Shown: positions 5,371-45,154 of the stretch, in pieces | How the letters are laid out: each line of letters begins with the position of its first letter | Position numbering within the stretch: position 1 is the stretch's first letter | DNA from: Candidatus Omnitrophota bacterium | Lineage (GTDB): Bacteria; Omnitrophota; Gorgyraeia; Gygaellales; Profunditerraquicolaceae | DNA: 64,000 nucleotides | Direction of reading: 5' to 3' | Assembly: GCA_035402765.1 (NCBI GenBank) | Contig: DAONDX010000003.1 | Span: forward strand, 50,682-114,681 | Made by a program: the position numbers and the translations under genes | Notes under the pieces: generated by a model | What the model saw: only the letters and a program-made list of their open reading frames with translations | What the model was told of the DNA's origin: nothing | Database searches by the model: none

Positions 5371-5394
5371 ATTAAACTTTAAGATAGCGGCGGG

Positions 5395-5429
5395 AGAAGG
5401 CTATTATTCTACCATTGAACTACACCCGC
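5395..5429 (-). pseudogene. 5' fragment (positions ~1-35) of a Gly-like tRNA immediately upstream of tRNA-Gly
   Basis: The reverse complement GCGGGTGTAGTTCAATGGTAGAATAATAGCCTTCT is near-identical to positions 1-35 of the adjacent tRNA-Gly, with 3-4 mismatches. It then diverges into CCCGCCGCTATC, which is inverted-repeated (GATAGCGGCGG) on the far side of tRNA-Gly. Confidence 0.5.
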
Positions 5430-5438
5430 AAAAAAAAA

Positions 5439-5524: not shown

Positions 5525-5647
5525 TAGAATTTTTTGTTTTCTAAAAAATTTTACTTCGAGCGTTTCCTTTGGAGAATATCCAGGCTTAACGAGAAGTAAA
5601 TTAATTCGATCTTAAAGAACAAAAGAGAATTCAAATGCGCGTAATAT

Positions 5648-5936
5648 TTAAGCCGACGAGAGGATTTGAACCCCCGACCCGCTACCAGAGGGGCTCTGCC
5701 CCTATGGCGCTCCTCACTAACGTTCGTCGCTGTTACCCCGAATCCGCGGGGGAAGTTTTCCCCCGCACCCCTTTCGGGTCGGACGTATATTTAAGCCGAC
5801 GAGAGGATTTGAACCCCCGACCCGCTACCAGAGGGGCTCTGCCCCTATGGCGCTCCTCACTAACGTTCGTCGCTGTTACCCCGAATCCGCGGGGGAAGTT
5901 TTCCCCCGCACCCCTTTCGGGTCGGACGTATATTTA
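5648..5936 (-). repeat. two perfect tandem 143-bp units directly 3' of tRNA-Thr; each unit is a ~75-nt conserved module fused to a copy of tRNA-Thr positions 41-73
   Basis: An exact period of 143 bp is seen by eye (TTAAGCCGACGAGAGG at 5648, 5791 and 5934). Each unit contains ...TTCGGGGTAACAGC...GCGCCATAGGGGCAGAGCCCCTCTGGTA followed by GCGGGTCGGGGGTTCAAATCCTCTCGTCGGCTTA on the minus strand. Confidence 0.8.
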
Positions 5937-6009
5937 AGCCGACGAGAGGATTTGAACCCCCGACCCGCTGTTTACAAAACAGCCGCTCTACCAACTGAGC
6001 TACGTCGGC
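5937..6009 (-). tRNA. tRNA-Thr (anticodon TGT)
   Basis: The reverse complement reads GCCGACGTAGCTCAGTTGGTAGAGCGGCTGTTTTGTAAACAGCGGGTCGGGGGTTCAAATCCTCTCGTCGGCT, with anticodon loop TTTGTAA. Confidence 0.85.
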
Positions 6010-8792: not shown

Positions 8793-9990
8793 TCTTCAGC
8801 ACGCTTTCGGTTATTTTTAAAGCCTGGCTTACTTCTTTTACGTCATGCACCCGCACAATGTTGGCGCCGCGCTCAACCGCCATTACACATGCAGCGATAG
8901 AACCGCTGGAGCGGTTTTCCGAATCAGACTTTAAAACTTTAGCAATAAAAGATTTTCGGGAAGGACCGATAAGTATCGGCTTGCCCAAGGGCTTAAATTC
9001 TTCCAAGTGTTTAATTATTTCCAGATTTTGCCCCGGATTCTTTCCAAAACCTAGACCCGGATCAACCATGATTTTTTCAGGCAAAATCCCTCCCGCTTGC
9101 GCAGCATCAATGGAGTTTCTTAAAAACCCGGTAATATCGTCGATTAATGATTCGTAAACAATATTTTTTTGCATATTTACGGGTTTTCCCAGCATATGCA
9201 TAATTACCACCGCCGCTTTAAAACGGGCAACCACTTTTATCATCCGGCTGTCTCTTAGCCCGGAAATATCGTTAATGATTTGCGCCCCGGCGTCTAAAAC
9301 GGCTTTAGCTACTTCAGGTTTATTCGTATCAACAGAAATAGGTACTTTAATTTTTTTTACTAAAAACTTTACTACCGGTTCAGTGCGTCGCAACTCTTCT
9401 TTAATACTCACGGATTTTGCGCCCGGGCGGCTGGACTGACCGCCTAAATCAATGAGATCGGCTCCATCTTTTACCAGGGCCTGAGCTTTTTTAAGAGCCA
9501 GATCTAAATAGTCGCGGTTAAACCGCTGATAAATACCATCGTGGCTGAATGAATCAGGGGTTAAATTTATAATCCCCATGATCTTGGCTCTTTGTCCGAG
9601 ATCTAAGCGGCCTTTTCTTAAAGCAAGGACAAAATCAGTTTGGGTAAATTTTTTGATACTTCCATCTAAATCCTCTGCCAATTTTTGCAGGCCGAACGGC
9701 TGGATTTTCAATTTACTAATCAGGGCATTAAACTGGGCCAGCTGTCCGATTAAAAGAATATCGGTTTTTTTAATACTACCGGTAAGCGATCCCCGGGCAA
9801 CCGCCGCATCTGCCCCCAAAGCCAGCATTTCCTGCTTAAGGATATTGGCCACTACATTATTCACAGCCTTTAACCGGATCAAAAAAGCCGAGGCCTTAGG
9901 CAGCATGATCTTGATCCCATAAGGATCAGCACCAATCTCGGACATGATTCTGCTTACGTCTTCAGAGCTGCTAAAACGGAAAATGCGCAT
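8779..9990 (-). CDS. folP: dihydropteroate synthase with a ~120-aa N-terminal extension of unknown function
   Basis: The C-terminal ~280 aa form the DHPS pterin-binding domain (MGIINLTPDSFSHDG...). It sits in the conserved ftsH-folP arrangement. Confidence 0.8.
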   Translation of the reverse strand: MRIFRFSSSEDVSRIMSEIGADPYGIKIMLPKASAFLIRLKAVNNVVANILKQEMLALGADAAVARGSLTGSIKKTDILLIGQLAQFNALISKLKIQPFGLQKLAEDLDGSIKKFTQTDFVLALRKGRLDLGQRAKIMGIINLTPDSFSHDGIYQRFNRDYLDLALKKAQALVKDGADLIDLGGQSSRPGAKSVSIKEELRRTEPVVKFLVKKIKVPISVDTNKPEVAKAVLDAGAQIINDISGLRDSRMIKVVARFKAAVVIMHMLGKPVNMQKNIVYESLIDDITGFLRNSIDAAQAGGILPEKIMVDPGLGFGKNPGQNLEIIKHLEEFKPLGKPILIGPSRKSFIAKVLKSDSENRSSGSIAACVMAVERGANIVRVHDVKEVSQALKITESVLKNVNS

Positions 9991-9994
9991 TGAT

Positions 9995-11851
9995 CTAGAC
10001 TAAATCGGTTTTTTCAATTCCCAGTATTTTTTTTACCTCTTCACCGCTTAAAACTTCTTTTTCCAGCAGAGAATCCGAAAGTAATTTAAGTTTACTTTGG
10101 TTAGCTTTTAACAGCTCAAGCGCTTTATTATAAGCATCATCAGTTATTTGTTTTACCTCTTCATCAATGATATGCGCAGTCTGTTCGCTATAGTTTTTTT
10201 CTTCCATGATATCGCGGCCTAAAAATACTAATCCTTCCCTTCTGCCCAAAGTTAAGTTACCTAGCCGTTCAGACATGCCAAATTGAGTAACCATCCGCCT
10301 GGCCATGCCGGTGGCTACTTCCAAATCATTTTGCGCGCCCGTGGTCACTTCGCTTAAATTCAACTGTTCCGAAGCCCGGCCGCCCAGAATCATGGTAATC
10401 TCAGCTAATAATTCTTTTTTCGTCCAATAATGGCGATCTTCCAGAGGAGGGGTAAAAGTATAGCCGCCAGCCAAACCGCGGGGGATGATCGAAACCTTTT
10501 TCAAAGGATTAACTTCGGGTAACAGCAGCGAAAGCAAAGCGTGCCCGGATTCATGTAAAGAAGTAATTTCCTTTTCTTTCTTGGACATGATGTGGCTTTT
10601 CTTTTCCGGCCCCATTAAAACTCTTTCCACGGATTTATCTAAATCCACTTCTTCTACTGATTCCTTATTGTTACGGGCCGCCATTAACGCCGCCTCATTA
10701 CAAAGATTAGCCAGGTCTGCCCCGGAAAAGCCCGGAGTTTGGCTGGCTACAGATTTTAAGTTAACTGATGCGGATAGTTTTATCTTACGGGTATGCACCT
10801 TAAGTATCTCTTCACGTCCCTTAATATCCGGTAAGTTGATAATAATGGTGCGGTCAAATCTGCCCGGACGTAACAGCGCCGGGTCAAGCGTATCCGGACG
10901 ATTGGTAGCGGCGATCAAGATCAAGCCTTGCTGGCCGTCAAAACCATCCATTTCTACTAACAGCTGATTAAGGGTTTGTTCCCGCTCATCATTACCTCCG
11001 CCAATCCCGGAAAAACGTAAGCGTCCAACAGCATCAATTTCATCGATAAAAATTATTGCGCCTTTTCCCGAAACTATTCCGGCTTTACGCCCCTGATCAA
11101 ATAGATCTCTGACCCGGCTGGCCCCCACTCCCACAAACATCTCCACAAAGTTTGAGCCGGAGATGCTAAAAAAAGGCACATTTGCTTCCCCGGCAACTGC
11201 CCGGGCAATCAGGGTTTTACCGCATCCGGGCGGGCCGACTAAAAGCACGCCTTTAGGAATTTTACCTCCTAATTTCTGAAATTTTTTAGGATCTTTAAGA
11301 AATTCAATTACTTCCTTGAGTTCTTCTTTTGCTTCATCCACGCCGGCAACATCGTCAAAGGTAGCCTTTTCATTATTACTTTGAATTTTAGATTTAACTT
11401 TCCCAAAAGACATGATCCGGCTGCCTAATTGTTCTCCGCGGGCAGCCATCATCCACCAAAAAAAGATCAGCAGCAATATCGGACCGAGGTTAAAAAGCAG
11501 GGTCAGCCAAAAGGTGCGCGCCGGTTGGATCTCGAAATTCTTGAGATTTTGGCGCATCAGCGTCAACATTTCCGGGTCATTATCCGGAATATTCACGAAA
11601 AATTTGGAATTATCCGAAAAGTCCCCTTCCAATTTGTTTTCAACCTTGGTAACTTTGCTTATTTTTTCAGGGTTATTTTTTAAAGTTTGATAGAATTGAC
11701 TGTAAGTAATTTCTTTAGGCACTGCGCTCCCCGGCAGATTATTAAAAGAATTAGTTAATATGATCAGTAGAAAAAAAACCAACAACCAACCAAAAGGGAA
11801 ACGCTTCGTAATATTGGTTTTGTCGGATTTAGGTTTCTTTTGTGCGGCCAT
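9995..11851 (-). CDS. ftsH: ATP-dependent zinc metalloprotease FtsH
   Basis: 618 aa with Walker A GPPGCGKT, the AAA second region of homology, and the HEXXH zinc site (HESGHAL). Confidence 0.95.
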
Positions 11852-15479: not shown

Positions 15480-16268
15480 CTATTTCTTGCGATAAGCGTT
15501 TAAATAAGAATCGCAATAAATATTCTTATTTAAAAGCAATTCTGCGGTAATTAACGTATCCATTAACTCTTTATCTTTAGGATCAAGTATAGCAGAATCT
15601 AAGCCGGATGCAACTGCCATTGTTAAAAATGTGCGGTTGAGCAGATTACGCTCCTGAGCCCCTTGAGAAACATTGCTTAAGCCAATAATGGTTTGCGGCC
15701 CGGGAAGCGACATAAGCTTAAATTCATGAATTGATTCCAGGATATCCCGGATTTGGCCTTGGGCCACATTGACCGGCATCAGGATCGGATCAAGATATAG
15801 GTCTTGCGCAGGAAATCCTTTTTCGCTGGCATGCATAAGAATCGTGGCCGCCAATTCCAGGCGTTGATCCTTATTTTGCGGAATACCTTTGGCGCTAATC
15901 GTTATCCCGATCAACTTGCATTTATATTTTTTAGCTAACGGGACAAGTATCTCCAGTTTTTCCGGGTCAGCCGTAGTAGAATTAATGATCGTTCTATTTT
16001 TAGCAGCTTTTAATCCTTCGGCGATCGCTTCAGGCTTGCTGGAATCCAGGCAAAGCGGTTTGTCGGTAACCTCCTGGACTGTTTCGACCAACCAAGGCAT
16101 ATCAACTAAAGAATTTCGGGAAGCCGGCCCGCAGCAAAGGTCTAAAGCATCCGCGCCCCCTTTGATCTGCTCCAGCGCACAAATCTGAATGGTTTTTTTA
16201 TCACGCTCTTTTAACGCTTGAGCGATATTTGAATACATTCCGTTAATTAATTCACCGATCACAAACAT
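15480..16268 (-). CDS. acsE: methyltetrahydrofolate:corrinoid/iron-sulfur protein methyltransferase (pterin-binding domain)
   Basis: 262 aa with a DHPS-like pterin-binding barrel, lying within a cluster of CFeSP genes. Confidence 0.7.
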   Translation of the reverse strand: MFVIGELINGMYSNIAQALKERDKKTIQICALEQIKGGADALDLCCGPASRNSLVDMPWLVETVQEVTDKPLCLDSSKPEAIAEGLKAAKNRTIINSTTADPEKLEILVPLAKKYKCKLIGITISAKGIPQNKDQRLELAATILMHASEKGFPAQDLYLDPILMPVNVAQGQIRDILESIHEFKLMSLPGPQTIIGLSNVSQGAQERNLLNRTFLTMAVASGLDSAILDPKDKELMDTLITAELLLNKNIYCDSYLNAYRKK

Positions 16269-16270
16269 TT

Positions 16271-17206
16271 TTACCTCTTAAATAGCGCCTCTATGTAATT
16301 AGCCACATTTAAAGCGGCTTGCGGATGGCGCATAACTAAAAGATCAGCTCCGGATTGAATAAGACTGGTAGCCGTAAGCGTTTCCCAAATCACTCCTTGC
16401 TGCAAATCAGCTTTTGCCTCTTTGGCCCTCCAGGCCTCCTGGCCCACAAGACAAATAAACGGGGAAGATAGAGTTTTATCCCCGGATAAAGCCGCCAGCC
16501 TGGCTCTTTCCATAATTGAGTAAGCATATTCTAAACCATACCCCAATGCGCCGATCGTGGGATTAATTACAATTCGCTCCAGAGGCAACCCCATATCAGA
16601 AATTAAAATATTGAGTTGTTTAGCGATATTTATATCAATCGGGCTTTCGGCAATCAGACTATGTCCGTCAGCTAGAACGCTGGCGACTAAAGTTTTATAA
16701 TTATCCTGGACTGCGGAACCGATAAGACAGCGTTCTCCGCGGGCAGCTTCCGAGCAAGCCGGCAGAATCAAGTTATCCTTGTCATCCTCACCGCTGCCCA
16801 TAATTATCAAAGGCACGCTGATCTTGCTTAAAAATTTAGAAATAAACTTCGCGGCATCCTGGGGGCTCTTATTCCCGAAATCAGGATGCGTTCCCTGCAT
16901 TTTTAAACAAAGCATCCCAGCTTTAAATTGGTTAATACAGATATCCGCCCAGGTAAAGGGATCATTTATAGCTTTGCCATATGCCTTTATCAATCCCTCG
17001 TCGAAATCTAGCGGCGCAATATCCCAAATTTCAAAAGCAATTTTAGGCTTATAGGGAATGGTGCCTTCCCGGAATAATAACGGCATGACATTTTGCCCGC
17101 CGATTTTAACGGTCGAACTGCGCGAACCACCCTCTGCTTGTTTAGCTCCGATAGTTACGGTTGAAACTTCTTGAGGCCATTTCTCCAATACTAATGGTGC
17201 ATCCAT
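16271..17206 (-). CDS. acsD: corrinoid/iron-sulfur protein small subunit (CODH/ACS delta)
   Basis: 311 aa with family resemblance and operon context alongside acsC. Confidence 0.65.
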   Translation of the reverse strand: MDAPLVLEKWPQEVSTVTIGAKQAEGGSRSSTVKIGGQNVMPLLFREGTIPYKPKIAFEIWDIAPLDFDEGLIKAYGKAINDPFTWADICINQFKAGMLCLKMQGTHPDFGNKSPQDAAKFISKFLSKISVPLIIMGSGEDDKDNLILPACSEAARGERCLIGSAVQDNYKTLVASVLADGHSLIAESPIDINIAKQLNILISDMGLPLERIVINPTIGALGYGLEYAYSIMERARLAALSGDKTLSSPFICLVGQEAWRAKEAKADLQQGVIWETLTATSLIQSGADLLVMRHPQAALNVANYIEALFKR

Positions 17207-17943
17207 ATACGTTCTCCCAATGAATTAAGCGCGGTTAAAACTTGCGCATCTGTTTTTAGGTCAAAAATTGAACCACCCTGTAAACTTAAACGTTCAAGTT
17301 CCGGAGAAACCGGTAACTTACCTAAAAGTTCCAACCCGGCTTCTTTAATCATTTCATCCGGAATACTGTTATTAAAACGATTAATCAAAAGCAGGCTTTT
17401 CTTAATCTCTATTTTCAAGTTAGCCACTAGCTGGACAATTCTTTTAGCGGATCTTAAGCTGACCGCGGTAGCATCCGATACTACAATCATCATATCCGCC
17501 TGAGGCGTAGTGCGTCTGGACAAATGCTCTAATCCGGCTTCATTATCCACAATAATATAATCATAATCTTTGGTCAACTTAACAATTAGCCCGCGTAAAA
17601 TGTTATTGACATAACAATAACAACCCGGACCCTCGGGTTTACCCATATTTAACAGGTCAAAACCATCCTCTTCCTGAATGGCTGCCTGCACCTGGTGTTG
17701 AATAAAACGCTCCTTAGTCATCCCCGCCGGGATCTTGTCCGGGTTAACCGATAGATTATCGAGAATATCACCTACCGCCCGGCCCGGTTTTACTCCGAGC
17801 GTTTCACCTAAATTACTATTAGGATCCGCATCAATGGCTAACACCGAACCTGATTTCCGTTCTTTTAAAACACGCACAATTAAAGCCGCGATCGTAGTTT
17901 TACCAGTGCCACCCTTACCGGCTAAAGCAATAACATATCCCAT
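17191..17943 (-). CDS. cooC: CODH/ACS nickel-insertion ATPase (CooC/AcsF, MinD-like)
   Basis: 250 aa with a deviant Walker A GKGGTGKTT. Confidence 0.8.
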   Translation of the reverse strand: MGYVIALAGKGGTGKTTIAALIVRVLKERKSGSVLAIDADPNSNLGETLGVKPGRAVGDILDNLSVNPDKIPAGMTKERFIQHQVQAAIQEEDGFDLLNMGKPEGPGCYCYVNNILRGLIVKLTKDYDYIIVDNEAGLEHLSRRTTPQADMMIVVSDATAVSLRSAKRIVQLVANLKIEIKKSLLLINRFNNSIPDEMIKEAGLELLGKLPVSPELERLSLQGGSIFDLKTDAQVLTALNSLGERIWMHH

Positions 17944-19869
17944 TTAAAATCCCACCGAAGGAAATTTGGTTAAATCCGTATGCGGAAAAAATAAGGCCTG
18001 GCCATATTCTTCCATGTACCCCGGATCAACAGATAATTCGAAATATGTAATCTTGGAAGCCAAAGCATCGGCCAATTCCATCGCCTGACTGGATAAAAGT
18101 GTTTCCCGGGCACCGGCCAAAGAGCTATTTCCGATAAAAACAAATTTAGTCAGCGGTAAATCCGGCAATAACCCGATATTAATAGCGTGCTCAATATCCA
18201 AATACGTGCCAAAGCCTCCGGCGATAAAAATCTTGGAAATTTCTAAAAATCCCAGGCCCAAATGCTCAACTAAAATCGAGGTTGCTGAATAGATCGCCGC
18301 TTTAGAACGTTTAAGATTTTCAATGTCTGCCTCGTTGATCACAATATCAGCTTGAGCCTGGATATCTTCTTTAAAACAAACTACAAATTCACGGCCGTTA
18401 TCGGTTGAACGGATCCGCTTACCGGTAGCTTTAATTTTTCCGCCTTTATCAATTATCCCGGAGCTTAGCATTTCACTTAATAAATCGATGTAACCTGAAC
18501 CGCAGATCCCCCGCGGCGGTTTATCCTGGATGGTAGAATATTTAACGCTAAAATCATTTTTATCAATACTGACTCTTTGGATCGCTCCGCTAGAGGCACG
18601 CATACCGCTAGTTACGCCACTGCCTTCAAAAGCCGGGCCCGCGGATGCCGCGCAAGCTACCAAAAAATCACGGTTGCCTAAGACGATCTCCCCGTTGGTT
18701 CCGATATCGATCAAAATGCAAGATTGTTCTTTTTGATAGATACCGCTGGATAAAATACCGGCAGTAGTATCGCCTCCCACATAGCTGGAAACTCCGGGGA
18801 CACAACTTAACAGCCCCCGGGGATTAATATTTATTCCGGCCTCGGCAGCCCGGAATACCGGAATAAAATTTGCCGTCGGGACATAAGGCTGGCGCCGGAT
18901 ATGCGCCGGATCCATACTTAAGAGCAGATGGATCATCGTAGTATTGCCTGAGCAAACAACACAATTAACATCATTAAGATCAACCTGATGTTCGCCGGTT
19001 AATTCTTTAATAATCTGGTTCATGGTATCCGAAACAGCGTTGTGCAATTTTTCTAAACCGTCAGTTTTAGCAGCATAAACGATGCGGGTAATTACATCGC
19101 TGCCAAAAGCCGCCTGTTGATTATAGGTAGCCTTGGTCCCGAGAATCTTTTTTGAATTCAAGTTTACCAATTGCCCGGAAATAGTTGTCGTACCGATATC
19201 AAAACAAAACCCGAAATTATTATCCGTCGTGTCGCCCGGCTCAATTAAAACAATTTCCACGGCATCATCGCGCCGGGCCAAAGTTACCGTGACTTTCCAG
19301 GAATAATCCCGCAATAATTCACCGAGCTGGCGGATATTAAACAGACCCGTAGTGATTCTCGGAAATTCTCCTAAAACCCGCAGGGCCCGGTATAATCTCT
19401 CCAGATCGCTGATACTGTCATTAAGCGTAGGCTCGGGTAATTCCAGATATATTTTTGTGGCAAACGGGGAATGTTTAAAAAGTTCTTCTTCCGGACTTGT
19501 TTTTAGCGGATGCACATCCTCTGCTTTAGAGTACAGGCCGCTTAACCGTTCTTCCAGTTCATCCGGAGTAAGTTTGTCAAAATTAATCCGGGAACTATCC
19601 GGAATCAAAACCTCCAAATCACTGTGTACCGTAGTTAGACAAGCCAGGTAAACATTATTCTTTTTCTCTTGCGCGGTAATTATACCGTTTGGCTGGCTAT
19701 TAACTTTGCCCTGTTTAACAATCACTTTACAGCGGCCGCAAATCCCATCTCCCCCGCAATTAGAATTAAGGCTTACCCCGGCAGATATAGCCGCGCCAAG
19801 TATCGTCTTATCCTGTTCCACGGTAACTGACAAATTATCCGGAATAAATGTAACTTTAAACTTTTGCAT
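17944..19869 (-). CDS. corrinoid activation/regeneration protein (RACo-like: 2Fe-2S ferredoxin domain plus ASKHA ATPase)
   Basis: 641 aa with an N-terminal plant-type ferredoxin Cys cluster (CGGDGICGRCKV) and a large ASKHA-fold body, adjacent to the CFeSP subunits. Confidence 0.7.
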   Translation of the reverse strand: MQKFKVTFIPDNLSVTVEQDKTILGAAISAGVSLNSNCGGDGICGRCKVIVKQGKVNSQPNGIITAQEKKNNVYLACLTTVHSDLEVLIPDSSRINFDKLTPDELEERLSGLYSKAEDVHPLKTSPEEELFKHSPFATKIYLELPEPTLNDSISDLERLYRALRVLGEFPRITTGLFNIRQLGELLRDYSWKVTVTLARRDDAVEIVLIEPGDTTDNNFGFCFDIGTTTISGQLVNLNSKKILGTKATYNQQAAFGSDVITRIVYAAKTDGLEKLHNAVSDTMNQIIKELTGEHQVDLNDVNCVVCSGNTTMIHLLLSMDPAHIRRQPYVPTANFIPVFRAAEAGININPRGLLSCVPGVSSYVGGDTTAGILSSGIYQKEQSCILIDIGTNGEIVLGNRDFLVACAASAGPAFEGSGVTSGMRASSGAIQRVSIDKNDFSVKYSTIQDKPPRGICGSGYIDLLSEMLSSGIIDKGGKIKATGKRIRSTDNGREFVVCFKEDIQAQADIVINEADIENLKRSKAAIYSATSILVEHLGLGFLEISKIFIAGGFGTYLDIEHAINIGLLPDLPLTKFVFIGNSSLAGARETLLSSQAMELADALASKITYFELSVDPGYMEEYGQALFFPHTDLTKFPSVGF

Positions 19870-19882
19870 AGGTAAAATAAAT

Positions 19883-21214
19883 TTAATTAAGATTCTTCAA
19901 AAATGCGGGGATACCGGCCGCTTCTTTAGGACCGACGATAATTTTGAAACCGGACTGGTCTTCCAGGTCGCCGCTAATCATCGCCACATAACCCGGAATG
20001 ACTAAATTCTTATGCTTAATTATTTCTTTAACCCCGCAGGCGGATAATGATTTAGTAATCGCTTCCGCGTTAAATTTCTCCGCGGCCCAAGCGGTAAGTA
20101 CTGACATCCCTTGCGTATCTACGCTTAAGATATAGGCGGGTATTTTGCTTGTCTCCACCTCTCCTAAAACAGTATAATAGGTTAAAGAAAAATTTGTCGT
20201 AACCAAGAGCGGGGAATCCTGGCTGACCTTACCGATAGAATAAAGTTTAGGATCGATTTGCAGAGGTTTTTGCGGATCAGTATAAATATTTTGCCTTAAA
20301 GTTAAAATCGCCAGAACCTCCCAGGCAGAAAAACCTCTGATCAGAACGATCCCGGCATATTTAGCGATATAAGCGCTTGCTTCCATAGCCTCTTCATAAG
20401 GATCAGTTTTTTCTACAATCGCCAGGCTGGGATAGCCTAATGCGCGATTGGATTTTTTAAGCGCCTGGCGGCGTAACTGGGTTAAATCCCAAATTTTATC
20501 CGTGATGGGTTTTACCCCTGAATCTAAAATCAGATCCTTGACCCCCAAGTTGTTCAATTCTTTGGCCAGCTGGCCTAATTGAACAATATCCTGCGCAACT
20601 ACCACCAGAGGCAGCTGGAATTCTTTAGCGATGGAGGCGATTTGAGTAAAATTATCCTGATTTGCCCCGTAAAGCAAAGGCTTGCGCTTTTGACTGATTA
20701 TTACCGCTTCTTTTAAAGTGGGCAAATCGCTGCTGATCAACATCAGCGGTAAAACGGTATTATCCATAACCAATTTGGTGGCTTGCAAAAACCTTCCGGC
20801 ATCCTTGCTCTGTTCTAATGCCACCAAATTCACGTTAAGCTCCTGGCCGACCCGCTCAAATTTTAATTGATTAATTTTAGAAAGCCGGTCTTTTATTTCA
20901 TTATCACTAAGATCGGCATTAATAATAAATCCCAACCCCGCAGGATTACGGAATTTTTCTTCATGCCTATACATAACCGTTTCGTTACCAATATCAAATT
21001 TTGATTCATTACTGCCTAAAGTAATCAATTTAATTGCCGGCATGGCCTGCTCTTCCAGGGTATTTTTAGCTTCCGGGGAGATAAAGGGACATTTATCGAT
21101 GGGCAGTGTCTTTTTCGCCAGCTGCATGGCAAAAGCCAAACAAGTAGCCAACCCGCATTGACGGCAATTTGTCTTAGGTAATAACTTGTAGATATCCAAA
21201 CCTGAAAGTGCCAT
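19883..21214 (-). CDS. acsC: corrinoid/iron-sulfur protein large subunit (CODH/ACS gamma)
   Basis: 443 aa with an N-terminal 4Fe-4S motif CRQCGLATCLAF...C and an AcsC-like TIM barrel. Confidence 0.75.
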   Translation of the reverse strand: MALSGLDIYKLLPKTNCRQCGLATCLAFAMQLAKKTLPIDKCPFISPEAKNTLEEQAMPAIKLITLGSNESKFDIGNETVMYRHEEKFRNPAGLGFIINADLSDNEIKDRLSKINQLKFERVGQELNVNLVALEQSKDAGRFLQATKLVMDNTVLPLMLISSDLPTLKEAVIISQKRKPLLYGANQDNFTQIASIAKEFQLPLVVVAQDIVQLGQLAKELNNLGVKDLILDSGVKPITDKIWDLTQLRRQALKKSNRALGYPSLAIVEKTDPYEEAMEASAYIAKYAGIVLIRGFSAWEVLAILTLRQNIYTDPQKPLQIDPKLYSIGKVSQDSPLLVTTNFSLTYYTVLGEVETSKIPAYILSVDTQGMSVLTAWAAEKFNAEAITKSLSACGVKEIIKHKNLVIPGYVAMISGDLEDQSGFKIIVGPKEAAGIPAFLKNLN

Positions 21215-21957: not shown

Positions 21958-22269
21958 TTATAAACCCCGGTAAACCAAATATCCCAAAAGGATAATAAAA
22001 ATCAGGGCAAAGATATAAAAATCGTTAAAATAAAAAAAATCGCCGATACTGCTGCCTAAACTTTCAGATTCTCCTTTAGCCGGTCCGGGTTTTAAATGAC
22101 CTTGTTTCTTTTTATATTGTTCGACTTGTTCCTTTTTGAATCTCAAATATACTCCGCCTACCTTATAACCCGGGATGACCCCGCTTTCGGTCAAATCCAA
22201 AACATCTTTTTCCGACACCCCCAGCATAATTGAAACATCCCTGACAGTAAGCATTTTTTCTTCAGTCAT
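21958..22269 (-). CDS. small DNA-binding protein: excisionase-type HTH (HTH_17-like) with a C-terminal transmembrane anchor
   Basis: 103 aa with an N-terminal HTH (MLTVRDVSIMLGVSEKDVLDLTESGVIPGYKVGGVYLRFKKEQVEQY) and a C-terminal hydrophobic helix (FIFALIFIILLGYLVY). Confidence 0.55.
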   Translation of the reverse strand: MTEEKMLTVRDVSIMLGVSEKDVLDLTESGVIPGYKVGGVYLRFKKEQVEQYKKKQGHLKPGPAKGESESLGSSIGDFFYFNDFYIFALIFIILLGYLVYRGL

Positions 22270-22373
22270 TTTAAACTCAAGCGGCCTTGGCTTCCGGTAT
22301 TTTTTTTAACCAGATGCGGTATCCACTAATACGAATTCAGTTTTTATAATTAAATCCCGAAGTTTTTTCCGGC

Positions 22374-22877
22374 TTATTTTGCGATTTTGCCAGAAGCCAC
22401 CCAGGAATCTATCGCTTTACGCTCGAATTTCCAATCATTATTTTCTTTACTGGCCGGAACTTTTCCTGAATTGGCCCATTCCATAATCGAACTTAATTCT
22501 ACTTCCAGATATTTAGCCAATTGTTCGGAATTAAGAAAATCATGCAACATAGTACATTGTCCCTCAAAAACTGCCCCTTCGGCAATATTAAGCTTAGCCG
22601 GATAAATATGCCCCTCCACTATCGCCTGAGGAAGCAGGGTAAGCCTTTCTTTAGCCGTAATTTTCCCTTTGACCCGGCCGCCAATAATAATATTATCTCC
22701 GACGATATCGGCGTTAATTGCCGCAGTAGTCCCGATCGTCAAATTACCCCGGGTATCCAGGTTCCCCTCAAATTTACCGTTGATCCGCAGATTAACCGGA
22801 TCTTTAAAGGTTAAGGTCCCCTGCATAGCAGCATCGACATCCAATGTTTTTTCTTCTAAATTCTTTTTAAATGCCAT
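22374..22877 (-). CDS. bactofilin-domain protein fused to a C-terminal excisionase-type HTH
   Basis: 167 aa. Residues ~20-115 form beta-helical bactofilin repeats (GKFEGNLDTRGNLTIGTTAAINADIVGDNIIIGGRVKGKITAKERLTLLPQAIVEGHIYPAKLNIAEGAVFEGQ). The C-terminus reads SEQLAKYLEVELSSIMEWANSGKVPASK..WKFERKAIDSWV, an HTH_17-like fold. Confidence 0.65.
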   Translation of the reverse strand: MAFKKNLEEKTLDVDAAMQGTLTFKDPVNLRINGKFEGNLDTRGNLTIGTTAAINADIVGDNIIIGGRVKGKITAKERLTLLPQAIVEGHIYPAKLNIAEGAVFEGQCTMLHDFLNSEQLAKYLEVELSSIMEWANSGKVPASKENNDWKFERKAIDSWVASGKIAK

Positions 22878-23313
22878 GTTTACCCTCCTTTGAAAGTGGT
22901 GTTTCTACATAGCGTAAAAGGTATAAAACGAACCAAACGAGTAACGTGGCAAAAGCGGCGATTTTAATAAAACCCACACCAACTGCTAAACCAATCCCTG
23001 CCGCCACCCAAAGGCTCGCCGCAGTAGTCAGGCCCCGGATTCCGTCAGATTCACGCATAATCGCACCGGCACCCAAAAAACCAATACCGGTAACTACTCC
23101 GGCAGCAATCCGCGCCGGATCTAAAGCCACCTGATCTTTATATATATCAAAAACATACAAAGATGTCAACATGATAAGGCAACTGCCTAAAGCGACTAAT
23201 ATATGTGTGCGCAAACCGGCATCTCTGCGATGCACCTGCCTCTCCAAACCGATAAATCCGCTTAAAATTAAAGTTACCAATAAACGCATAACCATTTGTA
23301 AATCTGTAGGCAT
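22867..23313 (-). CDS. mgtC: MgtC/SapB family membrane protein
   Basis: 148 aa matching the MgtC N-terminal domain (LIRLVLAGLLGGLIGLERE-like). The gene overlaps the next gene by 11 nt, so the two form an operon. Confidence 0.8.
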   Translation of the reverse strand: MPTDLQMVMRLLVTLILSGFIGLERQVHRRDAGLRTHILVALGSCLIMLTSLYVFDIYKDQVALDPARIAAGVVTGIGFLGAGAIMRESDGIRGLTTAASLWVAAGIGLAVGVGFIKIAAFATLLVWFVLYLLRYVETPLSKEGKHGI

Positions 23314-23422
23314 CTTCTCCTCCTGGTCTACCTAGACGGCACCGACCTAATTCGCCAAACGGCCGAATGACAGTCCATCTTGTTATGCCGGTGCAATTCC
23401 CTTTAGCTCCGGATGATAGTAA

Positions 23423-29809: not shown

Positions 29810-32800
29810 ATGAGCGCCACGCCGACTAAAGCTAAGTATTATTTAAACAAGCAAGGTGAATTTGTAATTCAAAATTACAATTACGCCAAGCCATTCGCTA
29901 ATTTCTTCCCGGGAATCGCCGGAAAATTCGGCATCCCGATGTGGGTTTTCTATGTTAACCGCGGGCAGTGTGTCTGCAGCTTCGGTACCAAAGATAAAGA
30001 CCGCGCCATCCTGGAGTTTTTCCCGGCGAATAAAGCCTGGGAATTAACTTCTTCCCTGGGTTTCCGCACTTTCTACAAAATTAAAAACGCCAAGTCCAAA
30101 CCAATCTATTATGAACCATTCCATAACGGCTACAGCAATCTAAAATATCAAATTACCAATTCCATGCGGATCGGTTCTGCCGAGTTGATCCTGGAAGAAG
30201 AAAATCGCTCCCTAGGCATTAAAACCCTGGTTAAATATTTTAATATTCCTAACGATACCTTTGCCGGCCTAAGCCGGATTGTCTGCGTAGAAAATACCGG
30301 ACATAAACTTAAATCCCTCCAGATGATTGACGGATTACCCCAAATCATCCCTTTCGGCACAAATAATTTTTTCCTTAAAAAACTCGGACGCACCATTGAA
30401 GCCTGGATGAAAATAGTTAACCTGGAGAATTCTGTCCCTTTTTATAAACTTGAAGTTGACCCGGCTGACCGGCCGGAAGTCGTCCATATTAACGATGGCA
30501 ATTTTTATCTGGGTTTCCATTTCAAAAACCAAAAGCTTCAACTACTTAAACCCATTGTCGATCCGCAAGCTGTTTTTGGAGCGGTAACCGATTTTTCTTA
30601 TCCGGCCGAGTTTTTAGCTAAACCAAAATTTTCATATCCGGCCGAACAGCTAATCCAGGGTAAAACCCCCAGCGCCCTGCTTTTGATGGATCTGGAGCTC
30701 AAGCCCGCTGAACAAAAAATCTTTTATTCAGTTATTGGCCAGGCCCGCGACAGTAAAACCCTGAATAATTCGGTTAAAAGAATCATCGTACCCGGCTATC
30801 TAGATGATAAAATGCGCCAAAACCGGGAATTGATCGAAAAATTAAAAGCTGATATAGCAACTAAAAGCAGCTCTGCCGAATTTGATTTATACGCCGGGCA
30901 AACCTACTTGGATAATATTATGCGCGGCGGATACCCGGAAGTTTTTAAATCCGGATCGGTAGTCTATCTTTATTCTCGTAAACACGGCGATTTAGAACGT
31001 GACTACAATAAGTTTCAGCTACAACCTACCTACCTTTCTCAAGGCAATGGCAACTACCGGGACGCTAACCAAAACCGGCGTAGCGATATCTGGTTCAACC
31101 CGGATATACAAGATGAAAATATTATTTCTTTCATGAATTTAATCCAAGCTGACGGCTTTAATCCTCTGGTAGTAAAACCGGAAAGTTTCCTTATTAAAGA
31201 AAGCGCGGATTTACAAAAACTACTGGAAAACGTAGCTAAACAAGAGGATCTTGACCGGTTGGGCCATTTTTTAAAAAAACCTTTTACTCCCGGAGAACTT
31301 ATCTTTTTCATTGAGGAAAATAAAATTTTGCTCAACACCTCCTATGATATTTTTCTGGATCTGATCCTCTCGGCTTCCTTAAAAACCCAGGAAGCCGAGC
31401 ACGGTGAAGGTTTCTGGACGGATCATTGGGCTTATAATTTAGATTTAATCGACAGCTACCTGGGTGTGTATCCGGAAAAAGCTAACACGCTGTTTTTCGG
31501 AAGAAAAATTTTCTCATTCTTTGATAACGCCGAAATTGTCAGGCCCCGGAGTGAAAAATATGTTCTTTATAACGGGCAACCGCGCCAGCTGCATTCCCTT
31601 ATGCTGGATAATAACAAAAAGGAAATGCTGCGTAAGCGGCTGGCTGACCCGCATTCTTTAAGGACGCTTCACGGAGAAGGCCCGGTCCATTACACGACGC
31701 TAACCGCTAAACTTTTGTGCCTGGCGGCAAATAAACTCGCCTCTCTGGATGCATCCGGAGTTGGCATTGAGATGGAAGCCAATAAACCTAACTGGTTCGA
31801 TTCGCTTAACGGCCTGCCTGCCCTCTTTGGCTCATCAATCTGCGAAACCTTTGAATTAAAACGCCTGCTTATAACGATAAAACAGGCGCTAGAAAAATCC
31901 CCGGTAAAAGAAATTGAGATGGCCGAAGAAATAGCTAAATTTATTGAACAACTTAGCGGCCTGTTTGCGGAAGAAACTTTTTCTTATTGGGACAAAAGCA
32001 ACACCGTCAAAGAAAATTACCGCTATAATATCCGCCTGGGGTTTTCCGGGACCCTGACCAATGTCCCGGTGAATAAACTGCTTGATTTCCTGAAATGCGG
32101 CCTGGAAAAAGTGGAGACCGGCTTAACTAAAGCATTTGATAAAACTAAACACGTTTATAATTCGTATTTTATCAATGAGGTTTCCGATTATAGTATTGTA
32201 AAAGATCACTACATAAAACCGCTTAAATTTACCCAAAAACCTGCTCCGTTATTCCTGGAAGGTCAAATGCATGCTTTAAGGCTTACTTCCGGAGGCCAAC
32301 AAAGTTTAGATCTATACCAAGCGACTAAACAAAGCGCGCTTTTTGATAAAAAACTAAAAATGTATAAAGTAACCGCCCCGCTTGGCGCCATGCCGGAAGA
32401 GATCGGCAGATGCAGGGCATTTAGCCCCGGATGGTTAGAAAATGAATCAATTTGGCTGCATATGGAATACAAGTATATTCTGGAGATGCTTAAAACCGGT
32501 CTCCATGAGGAATTTTACGCCGAATTTAAAAATGTGCTCATTCCTTTTCTAGACCCGAAAATTTACGGCCGTAGCATATTAGAAAACTCTTCTTTTCTGG
32601 TCAGCAGCGCATTCCCTGACAAAAGATTGCATGGAAACGGATACGTAGCCAGGTTATCCGGGTCAACCGCAGAATTTATACATATCTGGTTGATCATGAA
32701 CTGCGGGGCTTCTCCTTTTTCATTGGATGAATCCGGCCGGCTGAATTTAACTTTTAAACCATGCTTAGCGGGATGGCTATTCAATAAAAATGGCGAATAT

Positions 32801-33007
32801 GTTTTTAATTTCTTAAGTCAAATTCAAATAACCTACCATAACCCTAAAAGAAAGAATACCTACGGCAAGAATTCCGCCAAAATCCGTAAAATCATCCTCC
32901 AAAATAAAAACCAATCCCAAGAGATAAATTCCACGGTCATACCTGCGCCTTATGCTGAAGCAATCAGGTCGCGTCAAATCAATAAGATTGACATCTATCT
33001 GGATTAA
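29810..33007 (+). CDS. large hypothetical protein (1065 aa). It has weak, unconfirmed resemblance to six-hairpin glycoside hydrolase/phosphorylase-type proteins.
   Basis: A long uninterrupted ORF on the opposite strand from all its neighbours, with its own promoter and terminator. Motifs such as GNGNYRDANQN and EGFWTDHWAYNLD are reminiscent of (alpha/alpha)6 glycosidase families, but I cannot place it. Confidence 0.5.
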   Translation: MSATPTKAKYYLNKQGEFVIQNYNYAKPFANFFPGIAGKFGIPMWVFYVNRGQCVCSFGTKDKDRAILEFFPANKAWELTSSLGFRTFYKIKNAKSKPIYYEPFHNGYSNLKYQITNSMRIGSAELILEEENRSLGIKTLVKYFNIPNDTFAGLSRIVCVENTGHKLKSLQMIDGLPQIIPFGTNNFFLKKLGRTIEAWMKIVNLENSVPFYKLEVDPADRPEVVHINDGNFYLGFHFKNQKLQLLKPIVDPQAVFGAVTDFSYPAEFLAKPKFSYPAEQLIQGKTPSALLLMDLELKPAEQKIFYSVIGQARDSKTLNNSVKRIIVPGYLDDKMRQNRELIEKLKADIATKSSSAEFDLYAGQTYLDNIMRGGYPEVFKSGSVVYLYSRKHGDLERDYNKFQLQPTYLSQGNGNYRDANQNRRSDIWFNPDIQDENIISFMNLIQADGFNPLVVKPESFLIKESADLQKLLENVAKQEDLDRLGHFLKKPFTPGELIFFIEENKILLNTSYDIFLDLILSASLKTQEAEHGEGFWTDHWAYNLDLIDSYLGVYPEKANTLFFGRKIFSFFDNAEIVRPRSEKYVLYNGQPRQLHSLMLDNNKKEMLRKRLADPHSLRTLHGEGPVHYTTLTAKLLCLAANKLASLDASGVGIEMEANKPNWFDSLNGLPALFGSSICETFELKRLLITIKQALEKSPVKEIEMAEEIAKFIEQLSGLFAEETFSYWDKSNTVKENYRYNIRLGFSGTLTNVPVNKLLDFLKCGLEKVETGLTKAFDKTKHVYNSYFINEVSDYSIVKDHYIKPLKFTQKPAPLFLEGQMHALRLTSGGQQSLDLYQATKQSALFDKKLKMYKVTAPLGAMPEEIGRCRAFSPGWLENESIWLHMEYKYILEMLKTGLHEEFYAEFKNVLIPFLDPKIYGRSILENSSFLVSSAFPDKRLHGNGYVARLSGSTAEFIHIWLIMNCGASPFSLDESGRLNLTFKPCLAGWLFNKNGEYVFNFLSQIQITYHNPKRKNTYGKNSAKIRKIILQNKNQSQEINSTVIPAPYAEAIRSRQINKIDIYLD

Positions 33008-33086: not shown

Positions 33087-33425
33087 CTAACCGATTTGTT
33101 CGCTTATCTTTATAGTCGAGGTAAGGTTAACGTTTAAAGTATGCACAAATAAAATCTGAAAAAAGTTTCCCTGATTAACCGCTAGAATACTCCCCTTAAC
33201 TTTGCAAAAGAAATGCTCCCGTTTTTCCTTGGTATTCTTTTCCTTAATAACATATAAATACGGCTGCGGGTTAACCAACTGATCGGCTTTAATAGGCCTG
33301 ATGATATAAGCAAAATGCCGGCGCACTACGCTATGCACTCCTTCTTTATCAGCAATCTCGGAAGTGGCGATAATCTTACGTCCCCGGTCAGAAAAAGTCA
33401 AATTTTTATAAAGTAGATCTCTCAT
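33087..33425 (-). CDS. hypothetical protein (112 aa)
   Basis: An ORF with no family I recognise, preceded by the 4x tandem repeat array. Confidence 0.45.
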   Translation of the reverse strand: MRDLLYKNLTFSDRGRKIIATSEIADKEGVHSVVRRHFAYIIRPIKADQLVNPQPYLYVIKEKNTKEKREHFFCKVKGSILAVNQGNFFQILFVHTLNVNLTSTIKISEQIG

Positions 33426-33537
33426 CTGGCTCCTGCTTTTACCAAACCTTTAATAAAATAACCGATTTCTAATAAAGTATGCAAGCCAGCTGAGGTTAAA
33501 TCAATACAATTTCACCTTAAAAAGAAAGCGCTTCCTC

Positions 33538-33725
33538 GTCCACCTGGACGACACCAACGCAATACCACTTAGCGTTGGGTGTATTGTCTACCTAGACGAC
33601 ACCAACGCAATACCCCTTAGCGTTGGGTGTATTGTCTACCTAGACGACACCAACGCAATACCGCTTAGCGTTGGGTGTATTGTCTACCTAGACGACACCA
33701 ACGCAATACCGCTTAGCGTTGGGTA
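33538..33725 (-). repeat. tandem array of four 48-bp units; each unit is a bulged ~10-bp hairpin followed by the near-palindromic 12-mer GTCTAGGTAGAC (the gene-proximal copy varies to GTCCAGGTGGAC)
   Basis: The period is 48 bp (palindromes at 33586, 33634 and 33682; variant at 33538). Each hairpin is CCAACGC-N11-GCGTTGG. The units differ only at one loop position (A/C/G). Confidence 0.8.
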
Positions 33726-43857: not shown

Positions 43858-44609
43858 TCCTCAGAAGCAACCTCATCTAGGATCTCATCCGGAATATCGA
43901 AATTGGCATAAACCTGCTGGACATCATCATGCTCTTCCAAAGTTTCAATTAAACCTAAAACTTGTTTTGCTTCATGACCGGTGACCTTAATCGTTGAGGA
44001 CGGAATCATGGTTAATTCCGCATCAACCCACTTAATGCCTTTCTCGGTAAGGGCCTGCTTAACCTTCTCCAAATCCGCTATTGCTGTGTAAATTTCATAA
44101 ACCTCGTCTTCATGTTTCATATCTTCAGCCCCGGCATCCAGGACAATATTCATCAACTCATCTTCTTTGACATTTTCTTTAGCTACTGAGATATAGCCTT
44201 TTTGGGTAAACATCCAGCTCACTGAACCGGCACCGGCCATATTACCGCCTTTTTTTGACATGATATTACGTATTTCAGCGGTAGTCCGGTTCTTGTTATC
44301 GGTAAGAGAATCAATTAGAATCGCCACCCCGCCCGGTCCGTAAGCTTCATACATTACAGCCTCATAAACTACTCCGGGAAGCTCCCCGGTTCCTCTCTTA
44401 ATCGCCATCTTTACGTTATCCGAAGGCATATTGGCTCTTTTGGCCTTTTCCATTATGGCACGCAGACGGGGGTTAGAGTCCGGGTTTCCGCCGCCATCTC
44501 TGGCTACCACCACCAACTCTTTAATAATTTTAGTAAAGGTCGCCCCGCGCTTAGCATCCGCAATACCTTTTTTACCCTTATTTGTTTTCCATTTCGAATG
44601 ACCTGACAT
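43854..44609 (-). CDS. yebC: YebC/PmpR family DNA-binding transcriptional regulator
   Basis: 251 aa beginning MSGHSKWKTNKGKK, the conserved yebC-ruvC-ruvA arrangement. Confidence 0.9.
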   Translation of the reverse strand: MSGHSKWKTNKGKKGIADAKRGATFTKIIKELVVVARDGGGNPDSNPRLRAIMEKAKRANMPSDNVKMAIKRGTGELPGVVYEAVMYEAYGPGGVAILIDSLTDNKNRTTAEIRNIMSKKGGNMAGAGSVSWMFTQKGYISVAKENVKEDELMNIVLDAGAEDMKHEDEVYEIYTAIADLEKVKQALTEKGIKWVDAELTMIPSSTIKVTGHEAKQVLGLIETLEEHDDVQQVYANFDIPDEILDEVASEE

Positions 44610-44751
44610 AACTCCTCCTCATCTACCTAGACGACACCCGCGTAGAGTGCCCACTACTGTTTATAATATCTCCTCGATACTGCGTTAATCAACACACATT
44701 AAGTGCAATTTCAATTCACCCGGAGTGTCTTGAATTAATTTTTAATAAATA

Positions 44752-45154
44752 AAGCAGGCAGAATAAGCCGGGTTCTGTCTTGATGCCTGCCTGCCGGCAG
44801 GCAGGCGAATGCTACATCGCAGTGGCTATTCCTCTCAATTCCCGCGTTACCACGGGAACTTTAGCAGTTTACCCGAGATTGTTTTCCGTTGAAACGGAAA
44901 GCGCGCCGAATCAGCACTCATCTCCTATTCTACTTTGCTCCACGTAGAGATTGCCCGTTTCACCTCTCCGCTTGGAAGCGGATACTCGTCTCTGTGGCTC
45001 TCTTGCGCTTTTGGCGCAAGATCCCAAGGGATTATCCTCTTAGCGGTTTTCTCAAACCGCTAAGGACGGGAATTACCCGTTACGTTATTCTCCGGAGCCC
45101 GGACTTTCCTCCCGCCATTGAAACAATGACGGGCAGCCACATCCTGCCTGCTTA
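44752..45154 (-). ncRNA. rnpB: RNase P RNA (bacterial type A)
   Basis: The minus strand contains GGAGGAAAGTCCGGGCTCC (the universal P4 5' strand), ACAGAACCCGGCTTA (P4 3' strand), GGTAACGCGGG (the P10/11 region), and a terminal P1 helix AAGCAGGCAGG/CCTGCCTGCTT. Total length is ~403 nt. Confidence 0.8.

Follow-up and report, generated by a model that had tools for sequence, protein, structure and literature searches.

The 17-nt motif (17-mer) lying against the Shine-Dalgarno sequence (SD) of yebC is, with a probability of about 70%, the end of a clade-specific interspersed repeat of Omnitrophota, which is transcribed and conserves its structure, and is neither a repressor operator nor a regulator specific to yebC. 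A transcribed, structure-conserving interspersed repeat is also the description best supported by the data. In the window (the whole stretch of 64,000 nucleotides that was analysed), six sites matched the 17-mer at ≤3 mismatches, all on the minus strand, whereas 0.05 were expected from shuffled sequences and none of 100 shuffles reached six. The occurrence of the motif is thus real and beyond chance. The six sites are located in the yebC leader, in the mgtC leader (23326-23342), and in four copies forming an array (33538-33698), and the motif is not free-standing, being the 3'-terminal module of a two-hairpin unit of about 50 nt.

This unit starts with a long hairpin. Above its basal helix, (R)CACC/GGUG(Y), which is almost invariant, come a bulged C, an upper helix that covaries, and a loop of 11 nt with GGWAUU at its end. 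The long hairpin is followed by one C, a mini-hairpin of 4-5 bp with a 4-nt loop, and a purine-rich GAGG tail. Of the 17-mer, GGUGU forms the 3' side of the long hairpin, and the separate mini-hairpin corresponds to GUCU-AGGU-AGAY. Outside the yebC leader, the window contains the following copies:

23398..23323, minus strand: unit in the mgtC leader (27.3 bits with the covariance model)
33724..33535, minus strand: plsY-ORF112 spacer, with four 48-nt units arrayed head to tail (period 48; 71-74 bits each)

Each array unit reads AAUACACC-C-AACGC / UAAGNGGUAUU / GCGUU-GGUGU-C-GUCUAGGUAGAC, with a long hairpin of 11 bp, and the fourth and last one carries a compensated mini-hairpin, GUCC-AGGU-GGAC, followed by GAGGAAG. 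In the mgtC copy, the basal helix is GCACCG/CGGUGC. Its GCACCG, where the array has ACACC, is a compensated change, an A-U pair being swapped for a G-C pair, and it matches the GGUGCC variant (versus GGUGUC) of the 17-mer. A 40-nt apical insert replaces the apical stem of this copy. The mini-hairpin GUCU-AGGU-AGAC comes next and is separated by a single C from the SD AGGAGGAG, after which the ATG lies at 23313. The conserved apical loop is missing from both the yebC and mgtC copies.

Several neighbouring genes are worth mentioning in their own right. The 112-aa ORF that gives the array spacer its name (ORF112, 33087-33425, minus strand) has no Pfam match and about 245 homologues, of which all named ones are from Omnitrophota, and it directly follows plsY in every locus fetched. 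A 1065-aa ORF (29810-33007, plus strand), for which no Pfam family is on record, is encoded on the strand opposite to almost all of its neighbours, and its position is conserved in relatives (1065-1070 aa). Downstream of mgtC (21958-22877, minus strand), an unusual bactofilin-HTH_17 fusion is accompanied by a second small HTH_17 protein.

A covariance model trained on 14 units and searched against about 270 kb of Omnitrophota loci (designated L below) detected 30 copies, a sample biased by the fact that most family members were found via the 17-mer itself. In the alignment of these 30 matches, 95% of the cells were paired and 12 of the 15 pairs showed changes on both sides; none of 500 shuffles equalled the observed values, and slid partners were only 24-51% paired. 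Both helices of the unit covary in this alignment. Across the pairs of the family, G·U/U·G combinations outnumbered A·C/C·A combinations by 24 to 3, which indicates that pairing is kept on the sense (RNA) strand, with the caveat that the model itself prefers G·U when choosing matches. The fold of the mini-hairpin persists with unrelated sequences (GUUUACGUAAAC, UCGCCAGGUGGCGA, CGCCCUUGUGGGCG, and GGCCCAGUGGCC), and its loop varies as well (AGGU, ACGU, UUGU, CAGU, AUGU). The unit lies in transcribed spacers and is in sense orientation in nearly all copies, a bias that could partly mirror the strong co-orientation of genes in these genomes. No Rfam family matched the unit at gathering score over the whole window. 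At E ≤ 10, only miRNA-family noise, well below the gathering score, was obtained on the array, and at E ≤ 1 nothing overlapped the unit in four complete copies. A literature search found no report of the sequence of the unit or of Omnitrophota repeats.

The region upstream of yebC, which encodes a 251-aa product with YebC/TACO1 Pfam domains and precedes ruvC and ruvA in the gene order, is organized as follows:

44748..45153, minus strand: RNase P RNA gene (RF00010, 158 bits), immediately upstream of the yebC leader
44731..44693, minus strand: first repeat unit in decayed form, AAGACACUCCGGGUGAAUUGAAAUUGCAC...GUGUGUU, following the RNase P RNA gene directly and aligning to the complete first unit of L117
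44692..44663, minus strand: putative sigma-70-like promoter, TTGATT-18-TATTAT (consensus match only)
44657..44642, minus strand: originally proposed upstream hairpin, GUAGUGGGCACUCUAC (4 pairs, GUAG/CUAC), which competes with the basal helix of the family
44654..44618, minus strand: truncated repeat unit (26.8 bits with the covariance model, E about 3e-4; centroid fold)
44637..44621, minus strand: 17-mer, GTGTCGTCTAGGTAGAT, in which GUGU is the 3' side of the basal helix and is followed by C and by the mini-hairpin GUCU-AGGU-AGAU
44620..44612, minus strand: SD of yebC, GAGGAGGAG, starting right after the mini-hairpin with zero gap from the 17-mer
44609..44607, minus strand: ATG of yebC

On the minus (mRNA) strand, the leader reads ...GUAGUGGGCACUCUACGCGGGUGUCGUCUAGGUAGAUGAGGAGGAGUUAUG or, in a fuller form, ...ACAGUAGUGGGCACUCUACGCGGGUGUCGUCUAGGUAGAUGAGGAGGAGUUAUG. 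The original prediction, made from the letters of the sequence, placed the 17-mer directly against the SD with TAGAT instead of TAGAC as its last half-site, and both readings were confirmed; one GAG had been dropped from the SD as it was written. A short hairpin was also described within 44610-44645, but this interval does not contain it, and it did not withstand analysis, as the 58-nt leader folded at −10.4 kcal/mol against a mean of −13.3 kcal/mol for dinucleotide shuffles (z = +1.27) and 184 of 200 shuffles were as good or better. A flank of the L122 locus, GGUAGUGGGACUACACC, is related to this sequence. The pairing aligned with the family, on which the centroid fold and the model alignment agree, joins GCACUC (44650..44645) with GGGUGU (44639..44634), so that one strand of a hairpin, the 3' one, is formed by the first third of the 17-mer. 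The truncated unit, which scored 26.8 bits versus 70-78 for complete units, retains this basal helix, a 5-nt loop, and then the mini-hairpin, and is devoid of the apical stem and the conserved loop. The architecture of hairpin, motif, and ribosome-binding site (RBS) had been described as mirroring the array at 33.5 kb; this is right only in part, as the hairpin originally singled out has no statistical support and is not homologous to that of the array.

The spacer between the RNase P RNA gene and yebC is 138 nt long and houses repeat copies. When the spacers of relatives were aligned, the order in the window was a decayed first unit, whose score fell under the threshold of the covariance model, then the promoter-like block, and then the 3' portion of a second unit. 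A TATTATAAAC block of the promoter-like region is common to the window, L110, and L122. The yebC leaders of L117 and L110 (YebC of the latter being about 93% identical to that of the window) contain one or more complete units ending in an identical GGUGUCGUCUAGGUAGAC-GAGGAGGAGUUAUG, and, as read from these alignments, the yebC copy corresponds to the 3' part of a unit that both loci have in full at this site. The leader is identical to the window in four conspecific contigs. A decayed remnant of the unit is found in L146-L148, and no unit was detected in the yebC leaders of L149 and L150, whose YebC proteins are 86-90% identical. The expected recurrence of the motif in the yebC leaders of relatives was thus observed only in part, and such a patchy presence fits a gained-and-lost repeat better than a conserved regulator of yebC.

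The RNase P RNA gene is located directly upstream of yebC-ruvC-ruvA throughout the clade. In L149 and L150 (about 9900-10000), the yebC SD is found only 20-35 nt after the 3' end of the RNase P RNA with nothing in between, which leaves no room for a promoter and implies a ribozyme-mRNA co-transcript. In the lineage of the window, the rnpB-yebC spacer has grown by repeat insertions and carries the promoter-like TTGATT-18-TATTAT. A palindrome, CCUGCCGGCAGG(CAGG), forms part of the RNase P RNA (44786-44806) and is also found as an insert within a repeat unit of L116 (about 11100-11130); it may be a second small palindromic repeat.

The original prediction had left the choice between an operator and an RNA-level element. 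The second term of this choice is favoured by the covariation of both helices, by the 24:3 wobble ratio, and by the sense copies in transcribed spacers. Under the first, a dimeric transcription factor would bind the inverted repeat GTCTA-GG-TAGAC (double-stranded GTCTAGGTAGAC) downstream of a promoter and block RNA polymerase, and the array would be a high-affinity cluster. In the predicted yebC transcript, a 12-bp inverted repeat would indeed fall at about +25, the predicted promoter at 44692..44663 being such that the truncated unit and its 17-mer would fall within the first ~50 nt, and the same sequence occurs before mgtC and four times in the array. However, the dyad covaries: the palindrome is replaced in other copies by the unrelated mini-hairpin sequences given above and yet stays self-complementary, which a sequence-specific operator would not tolerate. 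Furthermore, GGUGY, the conserved flank, lacks symmetry and pairs with an upstream strand, nearly all copies have the same, sense, orientation relative to the gene, and many intercistronic copies (L098, L068) have no promoter nearby. The position follows the SD and start codon, not promoters, the yebC site itself lying in the leader downstream of the promoter-like element, and the asymmetry of the wobble pairs also argues against an operator. We thus consider an operator to be very improbable.

Other candidates were rejected. A promoter inside the unit (TTGGAA-16-TAGGTA) has a "−10" that is not conserved in copies with other mini-hairpins, and sigma-54 and ECF spacings did not fit when inspected by eye. 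A terminator is contradicted by the lack of a U-tract and by the SD that directly follows, and a small ORF or translational coupling by stop codons in two to three frames. The features that generally define a LexA/SOS box, which was considered for yebC-ruvCA, were absent, as were those of TRAP-like (G/U)AG repeats, integron attC sites, and CRISPR.

The unit is also characterized by its placement. At about two thirds of the loci, 10-14 nt separate its end from the start codon. Eleven copies, comprising the two window copies of yebC and mgtC and nine found via the 17-mer, have their mini-hairpin at this distance, with GAGG or GGAGG directly after it. Among the seven copies found by the model only, which have other mini-hairpin sequences, four were also RBS-adjacent (L145 3844, L158 5247, L158 6791, and L160 17022). 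Outside the window, the genes behind the unit encode GYD-domain, MarR, cold-shock, NuoD-like, RsfS, and YebC proteins; in the case of rsfS, a two-unit array abuts AAGGAG. The GAGG tail of RBS-adjacent copies coincides with the SD of the gene. As GAG(G) also trails copies with no gene behind them (the tRNA spacer of L146, the last array unit, and L158 2926) and true empty plsY-ORF112 spacers contain no GAGGA, the purine tail seems to be part of the unit. The unit would either carry an SD with it or join resident SDs via the common GGAGG. The predicted unpaired probability of the SD in 14 unit-bearing leaders did not differ from that of leaders with shuffled upstream sequence, and there is thus no computational support for occlusion or insulation.

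In L111 (about 1500-1530), rsfS lies behind its two-unit array with no ATG, GTG, or TTG at the expected distance from AAGGAG, and the in-frame codon is AUA, which suggests a rare start codon or a mis-assembled junction.

Such a placement would also be expected if the unit marked a post-transcriptional regulon, in which a clade-specific RNA-binding protein or the 30S subunit would read the basal helix and the mini-hairpin by the SD and control the translation of yebC, mgtC, csp, the GYD and MarR genes, and others. The arrays would then serve as sponges or decoys, in the manner of CsrB towards CsrA, and the unit would have spread by recruiting genes, as proposed for Neisseria REP2/CREN. Consistent with this proposal are the fixed distance of 10-14 nt to the starts of many unrelated genes, the conservation of structure on the RNA strand, the invariant basal helix and GGWAUU loop motif, the GG-containing loops, which look like Csr/Rsm sites, and the precedent set by REP2, whose repeats mark a group of co-regulated genes (PMC3184786). 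The strongest hint comes from the MarR leaders of L048 and L104, whose last ~30 nt before the start are nearly identical, whereas the coding DNA is, by eye, visibly more diverged. This near-identity could reflect strong purifying selection and hence a specific binding function, which would speak against a passive repeat. However, neither the loop nor the stem sequence of the mini-hairpin is conserved, the yebC and mgtC copies have lost the conserved apical loop, and the presence of the unit at a given gene is patchy among relatives. In addition, whereas a sponge gene would be conserved, the arrays vary between strains and are missing from close relatives; the window encodes no candidate for the binding protein, such as CsrA, and no systematic effect on predicted SD accessibility was seen. 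A regulon of this kind is thus unlikely.

The interspersed repeat, in turn, multiplies as DNA, as shown by variable tandem arrays, nesting in loops, and gain and loss between close relatives. The array contains four units in the window and in L151, and three in the conspecific L152-L155, which originate from different samples. At the same plsY-ORF112 site, the nearest other species (L156/L157) has only half of a decayed unit, and none was detected in L149 and L146; likewise, the mgtC leader of L156 (tsaD-mgtC spacer) has no unit. The GYD leader carries it in L068 and L145 and is without it in five other genomes. Whole units are nested in the loops of other units in L110, L116, L122, and L158. 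When 185k species genomes were scanned with a 16-mer, 86 of the 88 matches were due to chance, being inside ORFs of unrelated taxa, and the genuine copies came from two Omnitrophota MAGs only. The two-hairpin unit was found in nine distinct metagenome contigs (ten loci, L103 being the same as L111), and the viral contigs scanned gave chance matches only. Protein searches assign the window to Candidatus Omnitrophota, and its ORF112 and YebC have exact matches on contig CAZRBT010000001.1 of GCA_964598445.1. No target-site duplication was visible when filled and empty sites were compared, the window genes, which are housekeeping only, include no transposase or mobilising enzyme, and neither a RAYT (Y1 transposase) nor a TnpA was seen among them or in the gene tables of the fetched loci.

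These data also bear on a selfish single-stranded DNA element of the REP/RAYT or IS200/IS605 type, whose DNA hairpins would be recognised by an HUH or tyrosine transposase and whose RNA would be functionless. The sense bias would then result from targeting of the lagging-strand template, and RBS adjacency from a preference for the SD complement. The hairpin with a conserved foot, GTAG and CGTC in the 17-mer, the arrays and clusters, and the presence/absence polymorphism could all be understood in this way; REP families have such tags by definition, and their mobilisation is assumed to be due to RAYTs (PMC3733652). However, GTAG does not sit unpaired at the 5' foot as a tag would; it lies 8 nt 3' of the hairpin and is paired inside the mini-hairpin, and CGTC is on the wrong side for CGTC families. 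REP families rarely form head-to-tail arrays and are mostly found downstream of genes, not against start codons (PMC3733652). The failure to find RAYT or TnpA in the window or copies in viral contigs, and the predominance of G·U over A·C (24:3), which is a prediction of RNA-level selection, make such an element quite improbable.

In kind, the unit would belong to the interspersed intergenic hairpin repeats, from which its RBS-adjacent placement and loop nesting appear to distinguish it. Closest to it in kind are Neisseria REP2 (contact regulatory element, CREN) and Borrelia IR-A/IR-B, which have two predicted stem-loops and a 3' RBS and are located immediately upstream of unrelated ORFs (PMC3184786). 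The Omnitrophota unit resembles them by its two covarying helices and by a GAGG tail that coincides with the SD 10-14 nt before starts and is present even where no gene follows. However, REP2 is 120-150 bp long and includes a promoter and an ATG (PMC3184786), whereas the Omnitrophota unit is about 50 nt long and has no ATG. By eye, no −10 conserved at a fixed spacing was seen across its copies, and the ATG is the gene's own. The unit further differs by its head-to-tail arrays and nested copies, and it shares no common sequence with REP2 and comes from a different phylum.

In REP/BIME sequences (GTAG- or CGTC-tagged; REPIN/RAYT), which are short intergenic hairpins rich in GC, the stems covary and G·T pairs are frequent; these sequences are transcribed, clustered, and variable between relatives (PMC3733652). 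The Omnitrophota unit shares with them the hairpin, covariation, G·T pairs, clustering, and the GTAG and CGTC tetranucleotides. A REP is defined by an unpaired GTAG (or CGTC) at the foot of a single hairpin of 6-13 bp, and REPs occur mostly downstream of coding regions as inverted (head-head/tail-tail) dimers linked to RAYT transposases (PMC3733652). In the unit, GTAG is paired in the mini-hairpin and CGTC comes after the 3' strand and not before the stem; the copies are head-to-tail or nested, about two thirds of them abutting the start of the downstream gene. Two hairpins and an SD-like tail further set the unit apart from REP/BIME.

MIRU-VNTR are units of 40-100 bp located in the intercistronic spacers of operons, transcribed, joined to flanking translation signals, and strain-variable in tandem number (PMC3184786, which cites Supply et al. 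1997). MIRUs contain short ORFs overlapping the stop and start codons of the adjacent genes. The intercistronic tandem units of the window, with four versus three 48-nt units in conspecific contigs, are of this type, but the Omnitrophota unit contains no ORF and its defining feature is the covarying two-hairpin fold. Every canonical unit has UAG in two frames, and the units of the window have UAA in the remaining one.

A resemblance to the Csr/Rsm system in the way of working only is given by the small GG-loop hairpin by the SD and the tandem multi-hairpin array elsewhere. That system combines GGA-loop hairpins at SDs with multi-hairpin sponge RNAs, CsrB acting as a sponge for CsrA. The loop of the unit is AGGU and variable, the array is not conserved even between close relatives, and no CsrA was found within the window; membership of Csr/Rsm is not supported.

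The most likely role of the repeat family would be that of a portable "hairpins plus SD" cassette shaping the 5' end, the stability, or the initiation context of downstream genes. Comparison with known repeats suggests that it may stabilise, or set, the 5' end of the cistron that follows. In the yebC mRNA, the copy would act, if at all, as a small structural 5'-UTR module against the RBS, and, as a remnant, it probably has a small effect. Slippage or unequal exchange would explain the formation of arrays, and microhomology at GGAGG, or a transposase, could explain new sites. Two bolder readings, which we hold to be rather unlikely, are a portable translation-control cassette wiring yebC, mgtC, the cold-shock, GYD, and MarR genes, rsfS, and the NuoD-like gene into one post-transcriptional circuit via an RNA-binding factor, or a new mobile element homing to RBSs.

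With this repeat family, the "motif" findings made for yebC, mgtC, and the 33.5 kb array collapse into one, which is a warning against reading such sites as the operators of a regulon. Omnitrophota are uncultured, and neither Rfam nor the literature searched yielded intergenic repeats or RNA elements described for the phylum. A repeat that keeps an RNA fold and preferentially ends at RBSs would be a natural movable 5'-UTR/RBS module. It would offer a handle on the origin of new translation signals and leaders, including the apparent passage of yebC from an rnpB-yebC co-transcript to a gene with its own promoter. The variation in array copy number could serve as a strain marker in metagenomes.

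Finally, other features were noticed elsewhere in the window. A tRNA-Thr gene is followed by two 100%-identical 143-nt repeats (5644-6009, minus strand; also L146, 7640-7880), each composed of a 112-nt GC-rich structured insert and a copy of the last 31 nt of the tRNA. Only weak noise was obtained with Rfam on them (Clostridiales-2, 20.7 bits versus 58.6 needed). A related insert with a duplicated tRNA-Met 3' end was found in another Omnitrophota contig, and the 143-nt repeats look like a small element targeting tRNA 3' ends. A partial copy of the 5' half of tRNA-Gly lies just upstream of the complete tRNA-Gly gene (5380-5430, minus strand). The region 15480-21214 (minus strand) encodes delta-type subunits of CO dehydrogenase/acetyl-CoA synthase, the corrinoid activator RACo, and a CooC-like ATPase, a cluster that points to a Wood-Ljungdahl-type module.
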